A DNA stretch of 64,000 nt from Pseudomonas phage HHBS51_1. A program made the translations under genes and the position numbers. The stretch lies in sequence record PQ287641.1. One strand, written 5' to 3'. The notes below the pieces were generated by a model. That model was not told where the DNA came from. It saw only the letters and a list, made by a program, of their open reading frames with translations, and ran no database searches. Every line of letters starts with the position of its first letter. The first letter of the stretch is position 1. Below, piece by piece: positions 56,479 to 62,617 of this stretch.

Positions 56479-56536
56479 TTTGCGATCCTCTGTTTTGGAA
56501 GATTTCGTTCGGGCTTCGGTTTGTCGCCCCGTTGAA

Positions 56537-56572
56537 AGAGATTATGCCTAGGTCGATGCTGCGTGTCTACAT
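56537..56572 (-). promoter_or_regulatory. promoter cassette 2 (-35 TAGACA complement of 56564-56569, -10 CATAAT complement of 56541-56546)
   Basis: 17-nt spacer. GGCATAATCTCT context shared with cassettes 3 and 6. Confidence 0.5.
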
Positions 56573-56617
56573 TTATTTCATCAGATTGATCGCAAAGCCG
56601 ACGAACGGTTGTCTGAT

Positions 56618-56650
56618 GTGAAAACACCGCAGAGCAGGCTGCGGTGTTTG
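56618..56650. terminator. rho-independent terminator hairpin in the 300-bp non-coding gap 56479-56789
   Basis: AAACACCGCAG-AGCAGGC-TGCGGTGTTT with T-tracts on both strands. Confidence 0.45.
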
Positions 56651-56789
56651 TTGGCGTTGGGGTGATGTCAGAAAGTCGGGACTGTGATAGGCTCGATGGG
56701 CGGATCGCCGGGCCTGTCGTTGTCCGATGCGGGCGCCGGGCTGGAAGGGATCGCACCCGACCGAAGCGCCAGCGATTCCGACTGCCTGC

Positions 56790-57323
56790 TTACCTGCGGA
56801 GCTGGAGGCGCTTTGGCGCATGAGGCGCGGGCGGCTCCGGAAGATCGGGCAGATCAGGAAGACTCGGCGCTATGCCGCCAAAGGACCGCTGCGACCGCTG
56901 CGACGGATTGTCGCCGAACATTTCGGCGGATCGGTTGTCCTTGATGACTTGACCTATGGCAGTCTTGTCGCCGCCCGGTTCTGCAGGATCGATGCCCACG
57001 AATGGAGTGGTAACGCAGCGCATGTTCGGATGGGTCGGCAGATTGTTCAGGACGATGGAGTCCGCCCAGACATACGGGTTTTTGTGGTTGCCGGGTCCGT
57101 GGCTGATGATCTCGGCAGGAATATGGCCGTTCATGGTGAGCCATTCCGCCATCCCTTGCCGAGTCAGCGGGCTTACCACGATCTGGCCAGTAGACTCTTC
57201 GGCGACGGCGAACAGATCACCGAGCTTGAACCCGATGATCATGTAGTTGGACCTGGACTCGCCGACGAAAGCCAGGGTTTCGATGTTGTGGTGGATATCT
57301 TGATCTTCCCAGATGTACAGCAT
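56790..57323 (-). CDS. hypothetical protein with Pro-rich C-terminal tail
   Basis: 177-aa ORF with GAGGAG RBS. C-terminus PDLPDLPEPPAPHAP. Confidence 0.5.
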   Translation of the reverse strand: MLYIWEDQDIHHNIETLAFVGESRSNYMIIGFKLGDLFAVAEESTGQIVVSPLTRQGMAEWLTMNGHIPAEIISHGPGNHKNPYVWADSIVLNNLPTHPNMRCVTTPFVGIDPAEPGGDKTAIGQVIKDNRSAEMFGDNPSQRSQRSFGGIAPSLPDLPDLPEPPAPHAPKRLQLRR

Positions 57324-57327
57324 GGTG

Positions 57328-57567
57328 TTACTCCTCTTTGGCGAAATTGTTCTTTCGAAGGTAGTAGGCGATCTTCAGTCGTGGCCAGAACGGCGTCAGT
57401 GCCACGTTGTCGTGACGGATGATCGCAAAGTTGTCCGTTCCTTCCAGCCCTGCGATGAAGCAGCGTTCCCAGGCGCTCCCGCTGTAGCGATCATCTGGCT
57501 TCCAGACGTTCATTCCTGGGCTGAGTTCGCTCGACTCCCATTTATGATCGATCTTGACGTTCCTCAT
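57328..57567 (-). CDS. hypothetical protein
   Basis: Internal ATG (MRNVKIDHKW) with GAGGGC RBS. The TTG-initiated longer form would overlap the upstream gene by 67 nt. Confidence 0.4.
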   Translation of the reverse strand: MRNVKIDHKWESSELSPGMNVWKPDDRYSGSAWERCFIAGLEGTDNFAIIRHDNVALTPFWPRLKIAYYLRKNNFAKEE

Positions 57568-57574
57568 GACGCCC

Positions 57575-57886
57575 TCAATAAGGCTGCTTGTTGTGTTCGA
57601 CCAGAGACATACCGGCCGGAACTTTGAAGCGGGCGTATTCAATCATCAGCGCCGTGCGACGCCGATTCGTGCCAGACTCGTCATTAACGAAGAGTTCGCA
57701 CTGATGCGGGATGACTCGCGTCACCAGGCCTTCGCCTTTCGAGCCGTAGAACTTGATGTAGACCGCGACGCCTCGCGTCATGTTCAGATGGATCGTTTCG
57801 CAGAGTCGCTGCGCGGCCGACGCGCTGGACAGATCTGTCGGACTGACCGTCACCCAGTAATGGCCACTTTGTTCTTTATCGGACAT
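57575..57886 (-). CDS. hypothetical protein
   Basis: 103-aa ORF. Confidence 0.45.
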   Translation of the reverse strand: MSDKEQSGHYWVTVSPTDLSSASAAQRLCETIHLNMTRGVAVYIKFYGSKGEGLVTRVIPHQCELFVNDESGTNRRRTALMIEYARFKVPAGMSLVEHNKQPY

Positions 57887-57935
57887 AAACTGCCCTCCAA
57901 TGAGAAAGCCTCTGCCGAGTAGCAGAGGCTGGTTG

Positions 57936-58157
57936 TTAGTCGCGCTTCATCAAGACGACTTTATCATATGCGCGATACTTCCCGCGCCAGTCTTCCCAGT
58001 AGTCGCCGGCCGGGCAGGTCAGCTCCAGAGTGATTTCGTCTCGCCAGCATTCGACGGAAAGGACGATGGCCTTGTTCCTGGCTGCGGAATCTGCTCTGAG
58101 TTTAATCAGAATCTCGTCGCCCGTTTTCAGTTCATCGACTCTTACCACTTTGGCCAT
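57936..58157 (-). CDS. hypothetical protein
   Basis: 73-aa ORF. Confidence 0.4.
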   Translation of the reverse strand: MAKVVRVDELKTGDEILIKLRADSAARNKAIVLSVECWRDEITLELTCPAGDYWEDWRGKYRAYDKVVLMKRD

Positions 58158-58212
58158 GACATTCTCCTATTAGAAGGGCGCGGCCAGGGCGATCCCTAGC
58201 CGCGCCGATGGA

Positions 58213-60969: not shown

Positions 60970-61000
60970 CGCTTTCTCTCCGAGATTGTTCCGTTTCAAT

Positions 61001-61038
61001 GAGGTGACTATACCTAAGTCACCTCATTGAGTAAAGCA
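61001..61038 (-). promoter_or_regulatory. promoter cassette 5 (-35 CTTTACT complement of 61030-61035, -10 TATAGT complement of 61007-61012) with perfect dyad GAGGTGAC-N10-GTCACCTC (61001-61026)
   Basis: 17-nt spacer. The 8-bp perfect inverted repeat brackets the -10. Confidence 0.55.
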
Positions 61039-61049
61039 TTTTCTTAAGA

Positions 61050-61238
61050 TTATCTGAAACCTTTTGAAGTCAGGAACTGCCGCCAGAGCCAGTCGATGTG
61101 TTCGTTGCAGTAACGCTCGCCATCGGACGACATAGCCAGAGCACCATCCTTGATGCCGAACCGGGTAACGGCGAGCCATTCGAATTCGAACTGGAGCGTT
61201 CCTGGGCGAGCGATATGGGACATGGCGTATTTCTGCAC
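61050..61238 (-). CDS. hypothetical small protein
   Basis: GTG at 61238 with GAGGA RBS, or ATG at 61223. 57-62 aa. Confidence 0.35.
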   Translation of the reverse strand: MQKYAMSHIARPGTLQFEFEWLAVTRFGIKDGALAMSSDGERYCNEHIDWLWRQFLTSKGFR

Positions 61239-61240
61239 GG

Positions 61241-61927
61241 TCAGTGATCCTCAGAAGGTTTCGCGTTTGCGATAGCCGCTACTTTCTGCATACCGAGGCG
61301 ATAGAAATCGGCTTCTTTCCTGGCTTTGGTAAGCTGCTCCATGGCGTCGCACGCCGTCTTGTGCTGGGAATTGGCGTTCTTGATGCTGCCGTCCAGGCTC
61401 TTGTCTAACTCTTCCCGAAGAGCCTTCTGCGATGCTAGCTCGGCCTCCAAATCCTGGATTCTGAGTTGAAGCTGGCGGTTCTGCTCGGCGACCTTGTCTT
61501 CGCGGGCTACGAAGTTCTGCAGGCGGTCGACAAGACGAGTATTTTCGCGCACCAGCTGCTGTTTGGCGACTTTGGTCCTTCGCAGTTCTGCTCGCAATGC
61601 GGACAACTCCAGCGCATGCAGATCGGCGTCCGATTCTTGCGACTCTGCGGCCTGCTTATTGCGCAGATAGTATTGCCCAGCCGCGAAGGCGAGCAGTGCT
61701 CGGTCTGTATCCTTAACTGTCTTGGCCATGAAGTTGGCTCGATACAGAGGCGCGAACTTGCAGGCGTCTGGGTCCCAGGCCAGATTATCGGCCACAGGCC
61801 AGAATGCGCGAAAGCTTTTCGCATCGACATGCGCCTTGACCGTCTGCGATGCGCCCGACTCTTCGCAGATGATTTCCAGAGGTACATAAATGGCGTTCTT
61901 GATGCTTCGGAAAGAAATGGTGGACAT
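61241..61927 (-). CDS. hypothetical protein: N-terminal globular domain plus long coiled-coil
   Basis: Start MSTISFRS at 61927 with GAGGATTG RBS. LRAELRRTKVAKQQLVRENTRLVDRLQNF... heptads. The 3' end contains a leader-like AACGCGAAACC segment. Confidence 0.5.
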   Translation of the reverse strand: MSTISFRSIKNAIYVPLEIICEESGASQTVKAHVDAKSFRAFWPVADNLAWDPDACKFAPLYRANFMAKTVKDTDRALLAFAAGQYYLRNKQAAESQESDADLHALELSALRAELRRTKVAKQQLVRENTRLVDRLQNFVAREDKVAEQNRQLQLRIQDLEAELASQKALREELDKSLDGSIKNANSQHKTACDAMEQLTKARKEADFYRLGMQKVAAIANAKPSEDH

Positions 61928-61981
61928 AACACAATCCTCATAAGAAGTCGCGGCCGGGACCATCCTGGCCGCGCATCGTAA

Positions 61982-62284
61982 TCACTCTTCGCCTTCGTCC
62001 GCGCTCAGCCACTCTTCGAAGGCGAAATTCACCTTCGACTCGACCCAATCCTGCAGCTCATCGGCGAACTCGTCACTGTCGATGTCCATGGTGATTCCCA
62101 TAACTTCCATGTTCCATAGCGCGGCATTCAGTTCGAACTGTACCATCTGCTCGCCATCGACTTCCAGCAGGATGCGGTCTGCGACTTCATAGTCGTCTAC
62201 ATCGAACAGATGGCCGCCCGCCAGGAGGTGCTGTACGAAAGCTTCATCGAGGTTGGTGACTTCGATCTGGACTTGTTTGGTCAT
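61982..62284 (-). CDS. small highly acidic protein (candidate DNA-mimic / anti-restriction type, speculative)
   Basis: 100 aa with about 30% D/E and few basic residues. Follows a hairpin terminator at about 61947-61975. Confidence 0.45.
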   Translation of the reverse strand: MTKQVQIEVTNLDEAFVQHLLAGGHLFDVDDYEVADRILLEVDGEQMVQFELNAALWNMEVMGITMDIDSDEFADELQDWVESKVNFAFEEWLSADEGEE

Positions 62285-62294
62285 TTTCGTATCC

Positions 62295-62441
62295 TTACTT
62301 AGCGGCTTTGAATTGGGCTTTGAGGTTGGCCAGTTCAGCTTTCAGATCGATCATCGCCTGACCGCGCAGGCCTTCCATTTCAGCCTCGCTGATTGCGATC
62401 TTGGCTGCGCGGATTTTGTCGTTGATTTGATCTTTAGTCAT
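62295..62441 (-). CDS. 48-aa coiled-coil peptide; first gene downstream of cassette 6
   Basis: Start MTKDQINDK at 62441. The longer ORF-track form would run through the promoter. Confidence 0.35.
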   Translation of the reverse strand: MTKDQINDKIRAAKIAISEAEMEGLRGQAMIDLKAELANLKAQFKAAK

Positions 62442-62482
62442 TTTCGGCTTCCTTTTGTTTGAAGGGTTTCGCGTTTCGATGA

Positions 62483-62518
62483 GGAGATTATGCCGATAGT
62501 CAGAATGGAAGTAAAGTG
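62483..62518 (-). promoter_or_regulatory. promoter cassette 6 (-35 CTTTACT complement of 62510-62515, -10 CATAAT complement of 62487-62492) with conserved leader
   Basis: 17-nt spacer. Leader CCTCATCGAAACGCGAAACCCTTCAAACAAAAGGAAGCCGAAA-ATG is nearly identical to cassette 1. Confidence 0.55.
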
Positions 62519-62617
62519 TCTGAGTGAAGAAATTTCTGTACACCGACGAACGGTTGCGCTCGACCGTCTGCTGCGGTGTCGATATACTCGGCCTATTGCG
62601 AACAATGGACTGATTAA

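Follow-up and report, generated by a model that had tools for sequence, protein, structure and literature searches.

The locus and its promoter cassettes

In the sequence of Pseudomonas phage HHBS51_1 (PQ287641.1), of which a stretch of 64,000 nucleotides (nt), referred to here as the window, was analysed, a block of small leftward genes at 56.4-62.6 kb is divided by repeated promoter cassettes. These cassettes, the genes behind them and their possible part in the rearrangement of the block are the subject of this study. The window belongs to a Pbunavirus (a PB1-like myophage of Pseudomonas aeruginosa) and shows 93-96% identity to known isolates. For the 6.3-kb block, 297 matching phage records were found at 80-99% identity, nearly all of them from Pseudomonas Pbunavirus (PB1-like myophages), and the closest record to it is Pa204 (95.7% identity over 100%). 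The large terminase gene, on the plus strand, has its start at 62618 and is the counterpart of gp03 of phage 14-1; the window is therefore a rotated Pbunavirus genome, in which 56.4-62.6 kb correspond to the right end of the 14-1 record together with its first 750 nt.

Each of the seven cassettes that an earlier note on this DNA had listed was found in its place when the minus strand was read. Its figure of six in the block has to be lowered to five, which is both the number that it listed there and the number present on the minus strand. It had written the -35 as CTTTAC, but alignment with the -35 consensus gives the hexamer TTTACT, followed by a spacer of 17-18 nt, and the ATG lies 27-62 nt from the -10 rather than 35-45 nt. 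At least four members of the family had been missed (4011-3982 and 34833-34806 on the minus strand, 48380 and 48445 on the plus strand). The cassettes, the first five of which lie in the block, are as follows.

62442-62525, minus strand: P62518; -35 TTTACT 62515-62510, spacer 17, -10 CATAAT 62492-62487, predicted +1 A62480; leader ATCGAAACGCGAAACCC..., then ATG 62441 of the 14-1 gp02 orthologue
60970-61045, minus strand: P61038; -35 TTTACT 61035-61030, spacer 17, -10 TATAGT 61012-61007, predicted +1 A61000, ATG 60969
60373-60454, minus strand: P60447; -35 TTTACT 60444-60439, spacer 17, -10 TATAGT 60421-60416, +1 A60409; leader ATCGAAACGCGAAAC, then ATG 60372 of the anti-END1 orthologue
58438-58527, minus strand: P58520; -35 TTTACT 58517-58512, spacer 18, -10 CATAAT 58493-58488, canonical +1 A58481 (the mapped 14-1 5' end is G58472), ATG 58437 of the gp82 orthologue
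56479-56579, minus strand: P56572; -35 TAGACA 56569-56564, spacer 17, -10 CATAAT 56546-56541, +1 at about 56533, ATG 56478 of the gp77 orthologue
44514-44597, minus strand: P44590; -35 TTTACT 44587-44582, spacer 17, -10 TAATAT 44564-44559, +1 A44552, ATG 44513
4387-4452, minus strand: P4443; -35 TTTACG 4442-4437, spacer 17, -10 TAGACT 4419-4414, +1 A4407, ATG 4386
3955-4021, minus strand: extra member; -35 TTTACT 4011-4006, spacer 18, -10 TAGACT 3987-3982, +1 A3975
34758-34843, minus strand: extra member; GCTTTACT 34835-34828, spacer 16, -10 TATTAT, +1 A34799
48370-48481, plus strand: two extra members; GCTTTACC...TATACT (elements 48380-48408, +1 48415) and ACTTTACT-N17-GATACT (elements 48445-48473, +1 48481)

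A sixth minus-strand candidate in the block, TGGACA-N16-CATCAT at 59230, was rejected; it lies inside a gene, is conserved only as coding sequence and has no start in 14-1. A CRISPR-like (clustered regularly interspaced short palindromic repeats) or tandem array was also discarded, as the earlier note had done, because the spacing is irregular (0.6-2 kb), an open reading frame (ORF) follows every copy and the copies differ.

A chance origin of the cassettes was ruled out by shuffles. The pattern TTTACT-N17/18-YATART has 4 matches against 0.02 expected, a number reached in no shuffle, and GCTTTACT occurs 6 times against 0.65 expected. The elements agree with the sigma-70 consensus at 4-5 of 6 positions of the -35 (TTTACT or TAGACA) and at 5 of 6 of the -10 (CATAAT or TATAGT), with spacers of 17-18 bp. 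A generic sigma-70 scan of the block returned 9 matches (3.7 +/- 1.9 expected), in which the cassettes of the block match 9-10 of 12 consensus positions.

The view that the copies are near-identical holds within sub-groups and fails across the family. P60447 and P61038 are paralogues (60401-60467 against 60992-61058, 87% over 67 nt), and a 46-nt leader family (44511-44556, 62439-62484 and 60368-60413) is 70-89% identical, the P44590 leader up to the ATG being 89% identical to that of P62518. The spacer sequences, in contrast, differ from one sub-group to another. Outside the hexamers, the cassettes have an A-rich tract, AAA(A/G)TGC, directly 5' of the -35 TTTACT, a C/T-rich discriminator after the -10 (CTCCTC or CACCTC), and an A-rich leader of 21-56 nt with a Shine-Dalgarno sequence, whose transcript starts AUCGAAAC.... 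When the same block was compared in 16 other Pbunaviruses (17 genomes in all), the -35 was TTTACT in all copies except one TTTATT (DP1) and the TAGACA of the P56572 orthologues, and the -10 of each cassette was invariant. The spacer of the P58520 orthologues varies in both sequence and length, and invariant hexamers around a drifting spacer are the expected signature of selection on both hexamers.

Promoter activity transferred from phage 14-1

In phage 14-1, 50 transcription start sites (TSSs), 26 of them sigma-70-like, have been mapped by ONT-cappable-seq (Putzeys et al., 2024, microLife, PMC10914365). The 50-nt regions upstream of these starts were taken from Table S3 of the bioRxiv supplement to Putzeys et al. 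(2024), and the starts were placed on the window by BLAST of the fragment from -50 to +30 (81 nt) around each TSS. The fragments match the window at 89-100% identity and in syntenic order, with the following assignments.

62523-62450, minus strand: 14-1 P001 (TSS 707-), equivalent to P62518
60450-60379, minus strand: 14-1 P049 (TSS 65240-, sigma70 type), equivalent to P60447
58522-58442, minus strand: 14-1 P048 (TSS 63303-), equivalent to P58520
56583-56503, minus strand: 14-1 P043 (TSS 61300-), equivalent to P56572
44602-44522, minus strand: 14-1 P028 (TSS 49234-), equivalent to P44590
4457-4377, minus strand: 14-1 P012 (TSS 9116-), equivalent to P4443
4025-3945, minus strand: 14-1 P010 (TSS 8684-), equivalent to the member at 4011-3982
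34849-34769, minus strand: 14-1 P024 (TSS 39481-), equivalent to the member at 34835-34828
48365 and 48431, plus strand: 14-1 P037 and P038, equivalent to the plus-strand members

The P049 fragment also matches P61038, more weakly and as a paralogue only (61038-60992, 89%). The 14-1 promoters have the same -35, -10, spacing and start nucleotide as those of HHBS51_1, and in P001, P049, P028, P012 and P010 the mapped +1 is an A located 7 nt past the -10. The orthologue of P56572 is also annotated as a promoter in the DP1 GenBank record. These results show that a reading of sequence alone can recover experimentally mapped early promoters.

A P001 fragment (-50 to +1) drove 'potent' expression of GFP in uninfected cells of E. 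coli as well as P. aeruginosa; the P038 fragment was also active in both uninfected hosts (Putzeys et al., 2024, PMC10914365). Since the P001 reporter is active in uninfected cells, host RNA polymerase (RNAP) alone suffices. Together with the primary 5' ends of 14-1 at the orthologues, this supports the earlier proposal of strong host-RNAP (sigma-70) promoters. Recognition by a phage-encoded sigma or specificity factor instead of the host sigma-70 was considered, because the JG024 paper describes conserved intergenic motifs of unclear function in PB1-like phages and cites the suggestion of a phage factor, and because the unusual -35 TTTACT and the conserved +1 sequence ATCGAAAC exceed what sigma-70 needs. 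However, the strong expression of the P001 and P038 fragments in uninfected cells makes such a factor very improbable, and the 14-1 promoters that are inactive without phage factors are marked by another motif, a CTGGG close to the start (Putzeys et al., 2024, PMC10914365). By their likeness to the 14-1 promoters, the cassettes would be active in HHBS51_1 as well, and P61038 is a predicted promoter on the same grounds.

At P58520, the 14-1 5' end falls at 58472 and not at the expected A58481 (minus strand), in the loop of a small hairpin of the form CGGCT GAGA AGCCG. This difference could stem from an alternative start, from processing of the 5' end or from an offset in calling.

Transcription units and anti-defence genes

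The genes downstream of the cassettes have 93-100% protein identity to their 14-1 counterparts. In the proposed organisation, P62518 would drive the gp02 and gp01 orthologues up to the hairpin at 61973-61949, and P61038 the two accessory ORFs. P60447 would serve the anti-END1 orthologue and five more genes, while P58520 would serve the gp82 and Bdi1 orthologues, ending at the terminator 57930-57903 with read-through to 56648-56619. P56572 would drive the gp77 orthologue. The division into several short units that the earlier note had proposed fits the units and terminators of 14-1. The other elements of these units are listed below.

62560-62595, plus strand: divergent promoter of the large terminase, back to back with P62518; TCGACC-N17-TATACT, +1 at about 62595; equivalent to 14-1 P002 (TSS 822+)
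61949-61973, minus strand: hairpin terminator that ends the P62518 unit; CGCGGCC...GGCCGCG with a T-rich tail; equivalent to 14-1 T001 at 178
60121-60372, minus strand: orthologue of 14-1 gp88 (anti-END1), 82/83 residues identical; first gene after P60447
58437-58213, minus strand: orthologue of 14-1 gp82, 100% identity; first gene after P58520
58157-57936, minus strand: orthologue of 14-1 gp80/Bdi1, 99% identity; in the P58520 unit
57903-57930, minus strand: intrinsic terminator that ends the P58520 unit; equivalent to 14-1 T014 at 62469
56619-56648, minus strand: hairpin terminator 5' of P56572; AACACCGCAG...CTGCGGTGTT TTT; annotated in the DP1 and PTLAW2 records

The longest 14-1 reads stop at 61396, the equivalent of 56648-56619 in the window.

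In 14-1, gp80-88 form an anti-defence island, in which gp80 is Bdi1, gp81 is Bdi2 and gp82 is a broad helper (bioRxiv 2026.06.18.732992, PMC13307970), and gp88 is an anti-END1 anti-defence protein (bioRxiv 10.1101/2025.03.31.646159). The same locus with orthologous genes is present in the window, and the anti-defence content expected by the earlier note was confirmed for anti-END1, gp82 and Bdi1, which are encoded at 99-100% identity. Exact coordinates are thus available for the units that express these three genes in a therapeutic phage family. Comparison of the 18 ORFs of the block with Pfam and PHROGs gave no function for any of them, and the label 'Tail length tape measure' that the coiled-coil protein (61241-61927) had received was set aside as an annotation habit and not evidence.

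The gp81/Bdi2 gene is absent from the window, where a 222-244 nt insertion/deletion (indel) maps at 58149-58191. It is flanked by a repeat of 23-43 nt composed of a GC-rich hairpin (58177-58206) and the site of the CTGGG-motif start P047, which is not of the sigma-70 type, and looks like a second kind of repeat-bounded module. In the window, the P047 site reads CTAGGG. The 14-1 starts P044-P047 map in the block at about 57851, 57897, 57993 and 58193 (minus strand), three of them with the CTGGG motif. Starts with this motif are inactive without phage factors, and the block is therefore transcribed from probably phage-dependent promoters as well. The orthologues of gp90 and gp89 (61050-61927, minus strand), located between the terminator of the P62518 unit and P61038, lack their own sigma-70 cassette. 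Their 14-1 counterparts are reached by read-through or from the internal motif-less start P050, which is unmatched in the window because the coiled-coil gene is divergent.

The cassettes as probable recombination joints

Across the 17 genomes, the block contains 4 to 6 cassettes. When the genomes were cut at the cassettes and the pieces clustered, conserved units A, B, C and D were obtained, together with two slots, each with a cassette at either end. The first of them (slot 1), beside the terminase, is either empty or occupied by one of the modules F, J, I and K. Slot 2, between TATAGT cassettes, holds module H in this phage, module E in others, or nothing, as in 14-1.

60459-60992, minus strand: module H, a two-gene accessory module (ORFs 60969-60739 and 60695-60459), flanked by TATAGT cassettes and absent from 14-1

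Module H (60482-60992) was found in 47 of the 297 records, all of them Pbunaviruses.

Some cassettes are chimeras of others. In PA5-like Pbunaviruses, the terminase-proximal cassette (P_A) and the second cassette (P_B) are separate. A three-way alignment showed that P62518 corresponds upstream to P_A of these phages (97% vs 56%) and downstream to P_B (99% vs 24%), with the switch at about +11 to +16. Likewise, P049 of 14-1 is a chimera, which matches the upstream TATAGT cassette through the left arm of an inverted repeat and the downstream one from the right arm onward. Chimeric copies and shared positions that have no function support the earlier suggestion that the cassettes were reiterated by duplication.

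Comparison of the block with its 16 relatives revealed 9 sites of structural variation, 4 of which have a boundary in a sigma-70 cassette, while these cassettes cover about 6% of the block. The cassette-bounded variation includes a swap of the anti-END1 gene (60091-60368). One further site of the nine is flanked by the repeated hairpin-plus-CTGGG element. The copies have 45-110 nt in common and might thus serve as substrates for homologous recombination; an unequal or inter-phage crossover within a cassette would remove, add or exchange the entire unit lying between two copies. Such crossovers would be one route by which the content of accessory and anti-defence genes changes, and from the genome comparisons we infer that this recombination is homology-driven and still ongoing.

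Taken together, we consider it highly probable (roughly 0.88) that the cassettes are sigma-70-type Pbunavirus promoters read by unmodified host RNAP and have a second role as recombination substrates. Several points weigh against this reading. On the promoter side, the -35 agrees with the consensus at only 4 of 6 positions, the transcript starts are those of phage 14-1 transferred by orthology, and P61038 lacks a 14-1 orthologue. The 5' end of 14-1 P048 lies 16 nt past the -10, within the loop of a small hairpin, and the predictor used by Putzeys et al. did not class P048 or P010 as sigma-70 type (PMC10914365). In the cappable-seq data, the time points are pooled and 'early' is not shown directly (PMC10914365); early timing of the cassette promoters is suggested by the literature term 'early genome region'. 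On the recombination side, 5 of the 9 structural-variation sites lie away from sigma-70 cassettes, and recombination at cassettes is only part of the plasticity of the block.

In addition, the cassette-bounded modules could in principle be promoter-carrying morons gained by illegitimate recombination. A phage moron is a gene that carries its own promoter and terminator and sits as an insertion between conserved genes, and the modules resemble morons in being single units with their own promoter that occur in some relatives only. They differ in that the flanking promoters here are mutual copies of each other and that chimeras mark the points of insertion or deletion, which argues for homologous exchange rather than independent illegitimate insertions.

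As promoters, the cassettes are already known from phage 14-1; the recombination role, the dyad of the TATAGT subtype and the conserved transcript start described below are modest additions. Recombination at cassettes could plausibly account for the plasticity of the anti-defence island, and the cassettes suggest how Pbunaviruses assemble differing anti-defence repertoires. For phage engineering, they may represent junctions that occur in nature and are tolerated, where accessory or anti-defence modules can be added, taken out or swapped.

The dyad of the TATAGT cassettes

The two TATAGT cassettes of the block contain an inverted repeat (dyad) that begins just past the -35 and extends to +3; the four leading bases of the -10 lie in its loop. 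In P61038 it is a perfect 14-bp dyad (arms 61030-61017 and 61009-60996), and in P60447 a 14-bp dyad with one G.T pair (arms 60439-60426 and 60418-60405). Phages PA5 and LS1 also have perfect dyads. The RNA folds of P61038 and P60447 have energies of -22.8 and -22.9 kcal/mol (z = -6.6 and -5.6). A stem-loop at P58520 is marginal (z -2.1), and nothing comparable was found in P62518, P44590 or P56572; the dyad was therefore rejected as a family-wide feature, being present in the TATAGT subtype only.

Conservation of the dyad was analysed in 18 distinct sequences, a scan of IMG/VR having given only 6 contigs with TATAGT cassettes. In this set, 96% of the cells are paired and two pairs are changed on both sides. 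The covariation is weak, since 28 of 500 shuffles reach the signal, and recombination between paralogues confounds the count. One-sided changes are mostly G.T on the sense strand.

Repressor operators typically sit over the -10 and +1, and this is the position of the perfect or near-perfect dyads at 61030-60996 and 60439-60405. With 96% paired cells and two independent symmetric double changes, the inverted repeat might be the main functional feature of these cassettes, acting as the operator of a dimeric repressor, from the phage or the host, that turns off the two units; this would make the TATAGT cassettes regulated rather than plain constitutive early promoters. We regard this as unlikely. 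A search of the genome for the half-site ATGAGGTGAC found no other copy in a promoter context, no protein of the block has a recognisable DNA-binding domain, and the covariation, reached by 28/500 shuffles, is weak. Moreover, G.T on the sense strand suits an RNA or single-stranded hairpin, the other strand being A.C, and mismatched chimeric dyads are found in the viable phages 14-1 (A.C), DP1 and E2005-C (G.T). In 14-1, the stem of P049 is mismatched because the cassette is chimeric.

Alternatively, the stem-loop may act as RNA, in the manner of the promoter-early stem-loop (PeSL) cassettes of T4-like phages. A hairpin of -23 kcal/mol in read-through transcripts would attenuate or terminate transcription or protect the 3' end, and would thereby insulate the units from each other. 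The strong folds and the G.U-compatible variation of the dyad are consistent with this, as are the PeSL precedent and the stem-loops that overlap the -35 of the cassettes of distant relatives. In addition, the orthologue of the P61038 cassette is annotated as 'terminator' in vB_PaeM-PTLAW2 (L103, 4940-4997), presumably from an in silico dyad call. On the other hand, no U-tract follows the stem, and three of the five cassettes of the block lack such a hairpin. In 14-1, no 3' end was called at the dyad, and P050 and P001 reads pass through it; the 14-1 stem is the weakest and chimeric, and is thus a poor test. An RNA-level role is therefore put forward tentatively, with the odds against it. The dyad may be an RNA attenuator, a DNA operator, or both.

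The conserved leader and distant relatives

Past the -10, the Pbunavirus cassettes follow the consensus C-N-C-(C/T)-T-C, A, TCGAAAC, and the leader from +1 to +16 reads ATCGAAACGCGAAACC. The distant PB1-like phages L011, L016, L019 and L041, whose terminases are 68-77% identical, have cassettes of the form GTG-TTGACG-N17-CATAAT-N6-A-TCGAAAC(G) on the minus strand upstream of the terminase gene. Their -35 differs from that of Pbunaviruses, whereas the transcript start is identical. L016 has 2 such cassettes, and L011, L019 and L041 have 3-5 per 10 kb. Stem-loops of 11-12 bp overlap the -35 in L019, and one of them, AAACCCGTCAA...TTGACGGGTTT, looks like a terminator fused to the promoter.

The P001 reporter fragment ended at +1, and the leader is therefore not needed for promoter recognition. 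Its conservation thus needs another reason, and may be related to promoter escape, to translation or stability, to a common regulator, or to concerted evolution. A genome-wide search for the leader motif with mismatches gave no enrichment (24 against 25 expected), only the exact cassette copies standing out, and Rfam contained no known RNA family for the leader or the hairpin.

It is conceivable, though we would not favour it at present, that the cassette is a portable promoter with a conserved 5' leader and an optional stem-loop throughout the PB1-like supergroup, serving both as a homology handle and as a common tag. If so, the homology handle would shuffle anti-defence and accessory genes between co-infecting phages; it would be what makes the Pbunavirus anti-defence island plastic, and would represent a system of the PeSL kind found beyond the T4-like phages. 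A phage factor acting on the A-UCGAAAC tag would shut off or process all early messages together, and the conserved A-TCGAAAC start offers a testable handle on early-gene shut-off in Pbunaviruses.

Comparison with known systems

Compared with 14-1, HHBS51_1 has the extra TATAGT cassette P61038 with its two-gene module and lacks gp81/Bdi2. One of its dyads is perfect and the other has one G.T pair; both are better formed than that of 14-1, which is chimeric. A text search of the papers on the island and on anti-END1 returned no discussion of promoters or of a plasticity mechanism (PMC13307970; bioRxiv 2025.03.31.646159). The cassette junctions offer such a mechanism.

A further parallel is provided by the PeSL cassettes known from T4-like phages (Arbiol et al., 2010, PMC2839356; Comeau et al., 2014, PMC4122927). 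In both cases, sigma-70 early promoters are repeated between the genes of a plastic region, here five in a 6-kb block of small genes, which are of unknown function or serve anti-defence. The layout is also similar, with an upstream stop codon, an A/T-rich tract, a strong sigma-70 promoter, a Shine-Dalgarno sequence and a start codon, and some copies have a stem-loop that includes G.T pairs and overlaps the -10. Like PeSLs, the cassettes bound indels and replacements between close relatives. However, the phage lineage and the sequence are unrelated, a convincing stem-loop is present in only 2 of the 5 block cassettes, and a genome contains about a dozen copies instead of about 50. Terminator activity and mini-circles excised during infection are features of PeSLs. 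By analogy, the cassettes may be a new example of this kind of element.

Other repeats in the window

Six exact copies of the 10-mer CCGTTCGTCG, which forms the core of an imperfect palindrome ACCG-N5-CGGT, are present against about 0.16 expected.

62544-62553, 56599-56608, 54774-54783, 52279-52288 and 51081-51090, minus strand: copies of CCGTTCGTCG
1976-1985, plus strand: copy of CCGTTCGTCG

One copy is placed between P62518 and the divergent terminase promoter, and another 29 nt 5' of the -35 of P56572. The motif also adjoins a promoter of the 14-1 P009 type, and two copies are found in the non-coding AT-rich region at 52-55 kb next to AAATTTC(T/C)G. The 10-mer may be the binding site of a regulator.

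A 100-nt direct repeat (8308-8407 and 54576-54675, 74% identity) is AT-rich at its start. Its second copy coincides with the 14-1 promoter P040 (plus strand), and the first copy is located upstream of the P014 start, at a distance of about 140 nt. Both copies are probably the 'AT-rich boxes' mentioned for JG024. Finally, 46131-46552 contains dense, imperfect direct repeats with a period of 33 nt inside a minus-strand gene, the orthologue of 14-1 gp67, within which P033 also maps; this is a repetitive coding region, probably rich in Lys, Glu and Ala.

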